Below, piece by piece: positions 18,821 to 51,053 of a stretch of 64,000 nt of DNA. The stretch lies in assembly GCF_003334355.1 (NCBI RefSeq), contig NZ_QOWP01000012.1; one strand, written 5' to 3'. How positions within the stretch are numbered: position 1 is the first letter of the stretch; every line of letters begins with the position of its first letter. The translations under genes were made by a program, and so were the position numbers. Source of the stretch: Escherichia coli. Lineage in GTDB: Bacteria > Pseudomonadota > Gammaproteobacteria > Enterobacterales > Enterobacteriaceae. The notes under the pieces are model-generated. The model was given only the letters and a program-made list of their open reading frames with translations, was not told where the DNA came from and did not search any database.

Positions 18821-18900
18821 GCCTGATAAGACGCGACAAGCGTCGCATCAGGCATTTGCTCCAGACGCCAGATGCGGCGTGAACGCCTTATCTGGCCTAC
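18821..18900. repeat. REP/BIME element (two inverted REP units) between convergent moeB and fsaA
   Basis: gcctgataagacgcg...cgtcgcatcaggc and gccagatgcggcgtgaacgccttatctggcctac. Confidence 0.8.
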
Positions 18901-18985
18901 GGTTCGGGCACAGATTTCCAAGCGCGGCAGGCATCGGTGCACTCCGCCACGTCATCAGCAATTTATGAGGATGCAGAACGTCCGG

Positions 18986-41628: not shown

Positions 41629-41656
41629 TGATAATGCTTATCAAAATTATTATCAC
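41629..41656. promoter_or_regulatory. Fur box in the fiu promoter
   Basis: tgataatgcttatcaaaattattatcac, matching the GATAATGATAATCATTATC Fur consensus, about 100 bp upstream of the fiu ATG. Confidence 0.7.
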
Positions 41657-41758
41657 TTGCACAAACACTATCACGGGATTAACAGTGGCATCGCATCCGC
41701 AGAGATGCTTTCTCGTGGCAGTGAAAATTTCAACATATAAGAAAAAGTCACCTGCAAA

Positions 41759-44041
41759 ATGGAAAACAATCGCAATTTCCCTGCCAGACAATTTCATTCG
41801 CTCACGTTCTTTGCCGGTCTTTGTATTGGCATCACGCCTGTGGCTCAGGCACTCGCCGCCGAAGGGCAAACTAACGCGGATGACACGCTGGTTGTCGAAG
41901 CATCAACGCCTTCGCTTTATGCGCCACAACAATCTGCCGATCCGAAATTCTCGCGTCCGGTAGCGGATACTACCCGCACGATGACGGTAATTTCTGAACA
42001 AGTGATTAAAGATCAGGGCGCAACCAACCTTACCGACGCGCTCAAAAACGTCCCCGGCGTGGGTGCGTTTTTTGCGGGTGAGAACGGTAACTCCACCACT
42101 GGCGACGCCATTTATATGCGTGGTGCCGATACCTCTAACAGTATTTATATTGATGGCATTCGCGATATCGGCAGCGTCTCGCGCGACACCTTCAATACCG
42201 AGCAGGTCGAAGTGATTAAAGGGCCGTCCGGCACCGACTACGGGCGCAGCGCACCGACAGGCTCGATCAATATGATCAGCAAGCAGCCGCGCAATGATTC
42301 CGGCATTGACGCCTCCGCCAGTATTGGCAGCGCCTGGTTCCGCCGCGGCACGCTGGACGTCAATCAGGTCATTGGTGATACCACCGCGGTGCGCCTGAAT
42401 GTAATGGGCGAAAAAACGCACGATGCCGGACGCGACAAAGTCAAAAATGAGCGTTACGGCGTCGCCCCTTCTGTCGCTTTTGGCCTTGGTACAGCGAATC
42501 TTTTGTATCTTAATTATCTGCATGTCACCCAGCACAACACGCCAGACGGCGGCATTCCGACCATCGGTTTGCCGGGCTATTCTGCCCCATCTGCGGGAAC
42601 GGCGGCCCTGAATCATTCCGGAAAAGTTGATACTCATAACTTTTACGGCACGGATTCCGATTACGACGATTCGACCACCGACACCGCCACCATGCGTTTT
42701 GAGCACGACATCAACGATAACACCACCATTCGCAATACTACCCGTTGGTCGCGCGTAAAGCAGGATTACCTGATGACGGCGATTATGGGCGGGGCGTCGA
42801 ATATTACTCAGCCCACCAGCGATGTGAATAGCTGGACCTGGTCACGCACGGCGAATACCAAAGATGTGAGTAATAAAATTCTCACCAACCAGACCAACCT
42901 GACCTCGACGTTCTATACCGGTTCTATCGGTCATGATGTCAGTACCGGCGTGGAATTTACCCGTGAAACGCAGACTAACTACGGCGTTAATCCGGTGACG
43001 TTACCCGCGGTAAATATTTATCATCCTGACAGCAGCATTCATCCCGGCGGCCTGACGCGCAACGGCGCAAACGCCAATGGTCAGACGGATACCTTCGCAA
43101 TTTACGCCTTTGATACGCTGCAAATCACCCGTGATTTTGAGCTGAACGGCGGGATCCGTCTGGATAATTATCATACTGAATATGACAGTGCCACCGCCTG
43201 CGGCGGCAGCGGACGCGGTGCCATCACCTGCCCAACTGGTGTGGCAAAAGGTTCTCCGGTCACCACCGTCGACACCGCCAAGTCGGGCAATCTGATGAAC
43301 TGGAAAGCCGGGGCGCTGTATCACCTGACGGAAAACGGCAATGTCTATATTAACTATGCCGTTTCCCAGCAGCCTCCGGGCGGCAACAACTTCGCCCTTG
43401 CGCAGTCTGGCAGCGGTAACAGTGCCAACCGCACCGATTTTAAACCGCAAAAAGCCAACACCAGCGAGATTGGCACCAAATGGCAGGTTCTGGATAAACG
43501 TCTGTTGCTCACCGCCGCGCTGTTCCGCACTGATATCGAAAATGAAGTTGAGCAAAATGATGACGGAACTTACTCGCAATACGGTAAGAAACGCGTCGAA
43601 GGCTATGAGATATCCGTGGCCGGGAATATCACTCCCGCGTGGCAGGTGATTGGCGGCTATACCCAGCAAAAAGCAACCATCAAAAACGGCAAAGATGTTG
43701 CCCAGGATGGTTCCTCATCGCTGCCGTATACCCCGGAGCACGCCTTCACCTTATGGAGCCAATATCAGGCAACCGACGATATCTCTGTTGGCGCGGGCGC
43801 ACGCTATATCGGCAGTATGCATAAAGGTTCAGACGGCGCGGTGGGAACGCCAGCGTTTACCGAAGGTTACTGGGTCGCCGATGCCAAACTGGGGTATCGA
43901 GTTAATCGCAATCTCGACTTCCAGCTAAACGTTTACAACCTGTTTGATACCGATTACGTCGCCTCAATCAACAAGAGCGGCTACCGTTATCACCCGGGCG
44001 AGCCAAGAACCTTCTTGCTCACAGCCAATATGCATTTCTGA
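41759..44041 (+). CDS. fiu: TonB-dependent catecholate siderophore receptor Fiu
   Basis: 760-aa ORF; signal peptide, TonB box region, plug and 22-strand barrel with terminal Phe. Confidence 0.95.
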
Positions 44042-44082: not shown

Positions 44083-44760
44083 ATGATGTACCACATTCCC
44101 GGCGTGTTATCGCCACAGGACGTCGCTCGTTTTCGCGAACAACTGGAACAAGCCGAATGGGTGGATGGACGCGTCACCACCGGCGCACAAGGTGCGCAAG
44201 TTAAGAACAATCAACAGGTCGACACCCGCAGCACGTTATACGCCGCCCTGCAAAATGAGGTGCTGAACGCGGTTAACCAACATGCTTTATTCTTTGCCGC
44301 GGCCTTGCCGCGTACCCTTTCCACGCCGCTGTTTAATCGCTATCAGAACAATGAAACCTATGGTTTCCATGTGGATGGCGCAGTACGCAGCCATCCACAA
44401 AACGGCTGGATGCGTACTGACCTTTCTGCCACGCTGTTTTTAAGCGATCCACAAAGCTACGACGGCGGCGAACTGGTCGTTAATGACACCTTCGGACAAC
44501 ATCGGGTAAAACTCCCGGCAGGCGATCTCGTGTTGTATCCCTCCAGCAGCCTGCATTGCGTGACACCCGTAACCCGCGGCGTACGAGTGGCATCATTTAT
44601 GTGGATCCAGTCGATGATCCGCGATGATAAAAAGCGCGCCATGCTGTTTGAACTGGACAACAATATTCAGTCGCTGAAAAGCCGCTACGGCGAAAGTGAA
44701 GAGATCCTGTCGCTGCTTAATCTTTATCATAATCTGCTGCGGGAATGGTCGGAGATCTGA
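44083..44760 (+). CDS. ybiX: PKHD-type Fe(II)/2-oxoglutarate-dependent hydroxylase YbiX
   Basis: ORF 44047..44760; start placed at [10 protein letters not shown]; 225 aa; H-x-D...H iron-binding facial triad consistent with a 2OG oxygenase. Confidence 0.9.
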
Positions 44761-44833
44761 TGCTTGAACTGCCCGAGTTCGTCCCTGGATTAGCTACACT
44801 TAACTGTACAAGTATTGATATGGGGAGGTCGAT

Positions 44834-45034
44834 ATGGCATCCGGTTGGGCTAACGATGACGCCGTCAACGAACAGATCAACAGTACAATTGAAGATGCGA
44901 TTGCCCACGCTCGGGGTGAAATTCCGCGCGGCGAAAGCCTGGATGAATGTGAAGAGTGCGGTGCCCCCATCCCGCAGGCCCGTCGGGAAGCCATTCCTGG
45001 CGTGCGCTTATGTATTCATTGTCAGCAGGAGTAA
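44834..45034 (+). CDS. ybiI: DksA/TraR-type C4 zinc-finger protein YbiI; the ORF here ends 3 residues after the second CxxC (66 codons), possibly truncated
   Basis: MASGWANDDAV...CEEC...CIHCQQE then TAA at 45032; the frame stays open for 21 more codons to a TAA at 45098 (see findings). Confidence 0.8.
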   Translation: MASGWANDDAVNEQINSTIEDAIAHARGEIPRGESLDECEECGAPIPQARREAIPGVRLCIHCQQE

Positions 45035-45364
45035 GATTTACAAAAACCAGCTTATACAGGATATAATCGCAGAGGTTCGAAAGACAGCCAGTTACGTTAA
45101 CTACAACTGGCGAGATGCATAGCGAGTATAATTTGTATTTTGCGTGTCATTCCGTGCCTTTAACGCTGCTGTGACTGCCACGCGGTATAAAACAAGTTCA
45201 TAAGTACAACAAATAAATGGTTTATCAGTAGGTTAGATATCAATCAATTTATTTGAACAAGGCGGTCAATTCTCTTCGATTTTATCTCTCGTAAAAAAAC
45301 GTGATACTCATCACATCGACGAAACAACGTCACTTATACAAAAATCACCTGCGAGAGATTAATT

Positions 45365-45625
45365 ATGAAAACTATCAATACTGTTGTTGCTGCTATGGCT
45401 CTTTCAACTCTGTCATTTGGCGTGTTCGCGGCGGAACCGGTAACGGCATCCCAGGCACAGAACATGAATAAAATCGGCGTGGTTTCTGCCGATGGCGCAT
45501 CCACCCTCGATGCCCTGGAAGCGAAACTGGCTGAGAAAGCCGCGGCAGCCGGTGCCAGTGGATACAGCATCACTTCCGCCACCAACAACAATAAATTAAG
45601 CGGTACTGCGGTAATTTATAAGTAA
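45365..45625 (+). CDS. ybiJ: DUF1471/YhcN-family periplasmic protein YbiJ (paralog of McbA)
   Basis: 86-aa ORF with signal peptide; same domain architecture and C-terminal motif (GTAxIYK) as McbA. Confidence 0.92.
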   Translation: MKTINTVVAAMALSTLSFGVFAAEPVTASQAQNMNKIGVVSADGASTLDALEAKLAEKAAAAGASGYSITSATNNNKLSGTAVIYK

Positions 45626-45628
45626 TTC

Positions 45629-45749
45629 GTAGGACGGATAAGGCGTTTACGCCGCATCCGGCAACAGATGCCTGATGCGACGCTACCGCGTCTTATCAGG
45701 CCTACAAAATCCGAACCGTTGGACGGATCAGGCGTTTACGCTACGTCCA
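45629..45749. repeat. REP/BIME cluster (three REP units) between convergent ybiJ and ybiC
   Basis: gtaggacggataaggcgtttacgccgcatccggc / gcctgatgcgacgctaccgcgtcttatcaggcctac / ggacggatcaggcgtttacgctacgtccag. Confidence 0.8.
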
Positions 45750-50822: not shown

Positions 50823-50903
50823 CGTCTCGGTGGCTTATGGGCGGTAAAACAGATAAATTTTTTCCCGTGTTCTCAAATTGCTGACAAGTGCTTGTTGTGA
50901 AAT

Positions 50904-51001
<98 letters not shown>

Positions 51002-51053
51002 AGTTTTGCGTTTGTTCATCAGCCTGATGCCGGGCATAGCCCGGCATAAAAGA

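Follow-up and report, generated by a model that had tools for sequence, protein, structure and literature searches.

The ybiI reading frame in the window (the whole stretch of 64,000 nt of Escherichia coli DNA that was analysed) ends at a TAA right behind its zinc finger, while the same frame then stays open for 21 more codons. This raises the question whether ybiI normally ends at this position or whether a longer gene was interrupted and, in the latter case, whether the interruption is real and what it does to the protein. An earlier note on this DNA had read a frame of 66 codons (...GVRLCIHCQQE) that is closed by the TAA at 45032-45034 and stays open behind it up to the TAA at 45098-45100, and it had excluded an extension at the N-terminus. 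Re-reading and re-translation of the sequence gave the same coordinates, and in-frame stops upstream of the start (TAA at 44801-44803, TGA at 44816-44818) indeed rule out such an extension. The features of the gene are:

44822-44828, + strand: Shine-Dalgarno-like GGGGAGG, 5 nt before the ybiI start, same in K-12
44834-45034, + strand: shortened ybiI frame, 66 codons and the premature TAA, with the ATG at 44834
44906-44908, + strand: codon 25, CAC (His) instead of CGC (Arg) in the reference; SNP 44907 G>A
44948-44959, + strand: first CxxC of the zinc finger (C39, C42), intact
45011-45022, + strand: second CxxC of the zinc finger (C60, C63), intact
45032-45034, + strand: premature ochre stop TAA at codon 67, AAA (Lys) in the reference; SNP 45032 A>T
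45035-45097, + strand: untranslated remnant, ybiI codons 68-88 (DLQKPAYTGYNRRGSKDSQLR), without extra mutations and including the G76-R88 motif
45098-45100, + strand: ancestral ybiI stop TAA

The ybiI gene of K-12 MG1655 comprises 267 nt and encodes a YbiI of 88 aa (WP_000146343.1), the length given in the earlier note, with AAA (Lys) at codon 67. Alignment of the 551 nt from 44700 to 45250 to MG1655 revealed two differences only, both within ybiI, which result in R25H and K67*. The change from AAA to TAA at codon 67, which the earlier note had offered as an example of a fitting mutation, turned out to be the exact change (45032 A>T); R25H (44907 G>A) is a second change that it did not contain. 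The 66 nt at 45035-45100 are the same as codons 68-88 plus stop of MG1655 ybiI, and therefore the open frame behind the TAA is an unmutated remnant of the gene and not a coincidence. Out of 5,426 complete genomes of E. coli, 5,421 contain a match to the stretch of 551 nt, with ybiX and 'C4-type zinc finger protein YbiI' as its annotation. None of these 5,426 genomes, PSS-12 included, has the exact 60-mer that surrounds either SNP (44907, 45032), which excludes that reference ybiI genes end at the same TAA.

The order of genes, fiu (41759-44041), ybiX, ybiI and ybiJ (45365-45625), is as in K-12, and the frame thus takes the position of a YbiI orthologue, behind fiu and ybiX and ahead of ybiJ. 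Compared to K-12 YbiI (b0803; NMR structure PDB 2KGO), the locus fiu-ybiX-ybiI-ybiJ is the same, and 265 of 267 nt, the start, the ribosome-binding site and the zinc-finger cysteines are identical. The allele of the window differs by R25H and K67* and specifies 66 aa instead of 88, without the conserved C-terminal tail. No in-frame start codon follows the premature stop, and a terminator scan revealed no convincing intrinsic terminator on the + strand that would be exposed by the early stop. No RNA element from Rfam overlaps the stop site; the sole match, REP-derived naRNA4 (RF02564, 78 bits), lies at 45632-45702, directly after ybiJ. A 7-bp inverted repeat (GCCAGTT...AACTGGC, 45087-45111) extends across the ancestral stop codon. 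At this site a terminator-like hairpin of 9 pairs (G-T allowed) was flagged on the minus strand only, and no T-run follows on the + strand.

The 66-aa protein with His25 is encoded in public Logan assemblies of ERR3469332, ERR4578542, SRR3823860, SRR25039422 and SRR25039423. The contig from ERR3469332 (8,020 nt, seen in 5 samples) matches the window across the stop with 100% identity. Identity to the window was also 100% for 3,821 nt, the fetched part of an 8,000-nt contig, of ERR4578542, and for the contigs of SRR3823860 (5,091 nt), SRR25039422 (1,024 nt) and SRR25039423 (1,000 nt). Since these contigs stem from independent public runs, the K67* allele is real and marks a repeatedly sequenced clone. 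No NCBI accession was found for the K67* protein, which came up in Logan assemblies only. The 8-kb Logan contigs stop within naRNA4, at 45654-45664.

A real TAA at the same codon was also detected on the contig L009, whose haplotype is unrelated and B1-like, shows 45 differences over 3.8 kb and carries Arg25; this Arg25 version of K67* is absent from the complete genomes. K67* at first sight seemed common, as 43 contigs encode the 66-aa prefix with Arg25, but most of them merely end at 45031-45033, and a real TAA is present only in L009 and in one similar place. In many unrelated public assemblies contigs end exactly before or inside the AAA codons of K67 and K71 (L010-L018 and L032-L037; 45031-45033 and 45043-45045). 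These contigs come from Logan and from several metagenome assemblers (names in metaSPAdes NODE style and in k141 style) and represent several haplotypes, and nearly no contigs (0-3) show prefixes that end before codons which are not one step away from a stop. Such ends could stem from an artefact, from points where k-mers merge or from a mixture of alleles in one sample.

The allele thus combines a premature stop relative to the orthologues, a downstream frame that still matches and independent sequence support. In our view it is likely to be a natural, clone-specific nonsense allele of ybiI, which codes for a C4 zinc-finger protein of the DksA/TraR family, with the activity of the protein lost or much reduced. 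A single A>T transversion at 45032 changed Lys codon 67 to TAA on an allele that already carried R25H, recently enough for the downstream 66 nt to stay unchanged. Translation should end at UAA followed by G and yield a protein of 66 residues that has the N-terminal region and the four zinc-binding cysteines and is devoid of residues 67-88. The activity of YbiI(1-66) is presumably lost or much reduced, which would make ybiI effectively a young pseudogene or a hypomorph, and the loss would be tolerated as the gene appears to be dispensable under many conditions. Loss or reduction of function is likely because the nearly invariant GYNRRGSKDSQLR tail is removed. Residual activity is possible, considering the intact zinc finger and a score above the cut-off of the YbiI family model NF008243, and so is an ochre suppressor elsewhere in the genome, outside the window.

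According to a first alternative the 66-aa YbiI is still functional, the tail being dispensable and the allele effectively neutral or a working short isoform. We regard this as rather unlikely, although several observations speak for it. Its N-terminal region is intact, and the C4 finger is kept, as the earlier note had stated: C39, C42, C60 and C63 are present, and residues 39-66 match the DksA/TraR C4 zinc-finger family (Pfam PF01258, CxxC...CxxC) with E=1e-11. Against the NCBIfam equivalog model NF008243 (PRK11019) the 66-aa product scored 117.9 bits over profile positions 1-66 of 88, which is above the cut-off of 96 bits; the 88-aa reference YbiI reached 160.5 bits. Furthermore, the AlphaFold2 model of YbiI, which has low confidence (mean pLDDT 60), shows a helix from 61 to 70 followed by coil, so that the tail is predicted to be unstructured; with the same low confidence, the premature stop would cut the predicted helix 61-70.

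The conservation of the tail argues against a dispensable C-terminus. All listed YbiI orthologues from Escherichia, Citrobacter, Enterobacter, Salmonella and Pseudenterobacter have 88 aa, a length that the product of the window does not reach, while the DNA for its GYNRRGSKDSQLR tail persists after the stop. Residues G76-R88 (GYNRRGSKDSQLR) are at least 90% conserved across enterobacterial genera, whereas the linker 68-75 varies, and this pattern indicates that the tail is under clear purifying selection between genera.

[quoted passage not shown] It is homologous to YbiI (E=5.5e-10), has the same C4 finger, and is the nearest solved relative of YbiI apart from YbiI's own NMR structure 2KGO. 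TraR is only about 40% identical to YbiI, which is longer by a conserved extension of about 13 aa. By eye, the WANDDA sequence of YbiI (5-10) fits the DxxDxA motif, which TraR has at the tip of its N-terminal helix, only at D8 and A10, and the residues of this motif are unpaired in both alignments, since the HMMER alignment starts at residue 12 and MAFFT leaves the motif unaligned. In TraR, a globular domain (28-57) lies between an N-terminal helix (2-27) and a C-terminal helix (58-73). The C-terminal helix contacts the beta lobe-Si1 region of RNA polymerase, and an RNA polymerase that lacks Si1 is unresponsive to TraR (PMC6970531, PMC9239242). In the alignment YbiI residues 12-77 correspond to TraR 12-75, and YbiI K67-Y74 pairs with TraR Q65-Y72, so that the lost segment aligns with the part of TraR beyond the last Cys, in line with the resemblance that the earlier note had seen. 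The allele ends at the equivalent of TraR Y64: only 58-64 of the C-terminal helix have counterparts left, and those of Q65-A73 lie after the stop. The alignment with TraR together with the conservation of the tail supports the view that the stop cuts a TraR-like C-terminal helix, whose equivalent in TraR makes a functionally required contact, and deletes a segment that appears to be under purifying selection. DksA (151 aa) shares the C4 zinc-finger domain PF01258 with YbiI, though the match is very weak (E=0.05), and the coiled coil of DksA is absent from YbiI.

Little is known about the function of YbiI. Overexpressed wild-type YbiI was reported to rescue the auxotrophy of a delta-dksA strain (data not shown in that study; PMC2613031), the ybiI promoter is preferred by sigma-S (PMC4447067), and serum induces ybiI together with Fur-regulated iron genes (PMC4145685). 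Beyond these three reports we found essentially no literature on YbiI function.

Natural isolates carry further stop alleles of ybiI, which were collected by prefix look-ups and spot checks:

Q65*, TAG, 64 aa, e.g., CTW11489.1; verified, widespread, including a chromosome-sized contig of 5.2 Mb
K71*, TAA, 70 aa, WP_338265782.1; verified
76-aa form, WP_407803755.1; NCBI-annotated
47-aa form, CAD5957012.1; NCBI-annotated
85-aa form, EEW3248634.1; NCBI-annotated
69-aa form; NCBI-annotated

Like K67*, these are single-base stops with a readable downstream frame; they affect different codons, and K67* of the window is coupled to R25H. The persistence of alleles without the tail (Q65*, K71*, 69 and 76 aa) in natural isolates, some of them on contigs of 100 kb up to the size of a chromosome, would be expected if the short form worked. 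However, the finger is hit by stops as well (47-, 59- and 62-aa forms), so that their persistence points to a gene that is dispensable as a whole and not to a dispensable tail. A concentration of the stops in the tail was ruled out by the prefix look-ups, which revealed similar or higher numbers for the finger. Stops in both finger and tail are to be expected when a gene is dispensable and its species has been sequenced very deeply, and the kind of event seen in K67* is already represented in public data.

The full-length R25H allele (WP_078187767.1) occurs on near-identical as well as on divergent haplotypes, and two of the near-identical haplotypes (L022 and L023) have R25H and lack the stop. 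This distribution indicates that R25H is older and recurrent and that K67* is the recent event, and it rules out that one recent double hit caused both changes. R25 is conserved throughout a set of 17 orthologues and also in TraR, as R22. Haplotypes that diverge by about 2% from the window (L019-L021, L024) also carry R25H (CGC>CAC). For R25H and R248L of Fiu all four combinations of alleles exist, which implies recurrent mutation or recombination at 44907.

The window itself is a natural piece of the E. coli chromosome that extends from mdfA to moaE, with a gene order collinear to K-12. Its closest complete genome is that of PSS-12, an isolate from human faeces in Ecuador; the two show 10 differences over 40,060 nt (99.975% identity). 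A K-12 background was ruled out: the window is separated from MG1655 by 69 SNPs in 39 kb, most of which are synonymous, with clusters in ybhF and clsB, and the first 19 kb diverge more strongly from K-12 than these remaining 39 kb. Together, these differences mark the window, as judged from its sequence, as natural, mosaic E. coli rather than K-12. About 103 bp in the moeB-fsa interval (18836-18938) are missing from MG1655, and a repeat of about 155 bp, probably of the REP/BIME type, is present in two intergenic copies (25542-25696 and 50869-51024) that are 86% alike.

K-12, VG888-46E9 and PSS-12 all have AAA at codon 67 and an 88-aa YbiI, and the polarity of the SNPs in 40 kb was determined with these three as references. 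The lineage of the window gained seven SNPs in the 40 kb: the A>T at 45032 and six changes from G to A on the + strand (23513, 36330, 41663, 44907, 49321, 55901). The strand asymmetry among the changes since the split from PSS-12, with six G>A of seven and no C>T, has a chance of about 1/32 and may reflect a replication-strand bias.

A further alternative, which we consider improbable, is that the stop was selected, as an adaptive inactivation within a remodelled, iron-regulated fiu-ybiX-ybiI locus; the pressure would perhaps have come from siderophore-linked antibiotics, colicins or phage. In its favour, the clone has the exchange R248L in Fiu (42501, G>T, codon 248), which only 1 of 5,426 complete genomes, PSS-12, shares. 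Some 96 nt upstream of fiu, the G>A at 41663 adjoins a Fur-box-like GATAATGCTTATC; this change is shared by only 2 complete genomes. K67* arose also on the unrelated haplotype L009, and ybiI is induced by serum together with Fur-regulated iron genes. On the other hand, PSS-12 has R248L together with an intact ybiI, and for this reason R248L is older than the stop. Given one SNP in ybiI, the chance that a second one out of the other six lineage SNPs hits the same 267 bp is only about 0.04, and this second SNP, R25H, is an older polymorphism. Moreover, the allele is rare, and any stop that needs a single step is expected to recur among the very many sequenced E. coli genomes. A Fur-box-like GATAATGCTTATCAAAATTATTATC is located at 41630-41654, just before the G>A at 41663, and the iron-regulated unit fiu-ybiX-ybiI as a whole shows three rare changes, namely the ybiI stop, R248L in Fiu and the G>A at 41663.

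A broader claim, that loss of the conserved YbiI tail is recurrently selected in E. coli, is equally doubtful. Hints come from K67* on two unrelated haplotypes, from stops at Q65, Q70, K71, Y77 and Q86, and from the rare change in the fiu promoter region and Fiu R248L that accompany the stop. If it were true, ybiI would be a contingency-type target similar to rpoS and would tune transcription in stationary phase or for iron uptake by way of RNA polymerase.

That the stop is an error of sequencing or assembly, or a deliberate ochre codon in a suppressor strain, is hardly credible: no complete RefSeq genome of E. coli has the allele and the A>T transversion is odd next to six G>A, but identical sequence was obtained from at least five run series of independent assemblies, and the window is nearly identical to the faecal isolate PSS-12. 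Neither engineering scars, cassettes or other engineered features nor tRNA genes, including those for suppressor tRNAs, were found within the window. The earlier note had left the choice between a natural allele and an engineered ochre stop undecided; the wild-type-like chromosome, the faecal origin of the nearest relative and the recurrence of the identical haplotype in several unrelated public runs favour the natural allele.

As a natural nonsense allele, K67* is an ordinary rare variant and not a new kind of element, and it is of little import for biology at large. For annotation it carries a caveat, since pipelines would call a 66-aa protein or flag ybiI as a pseudogene. Its use lies in the protein family: the allele can serve as a natural tail-less variant for testing the role of the GYNRRGSKDSQLR tail of YbiI.
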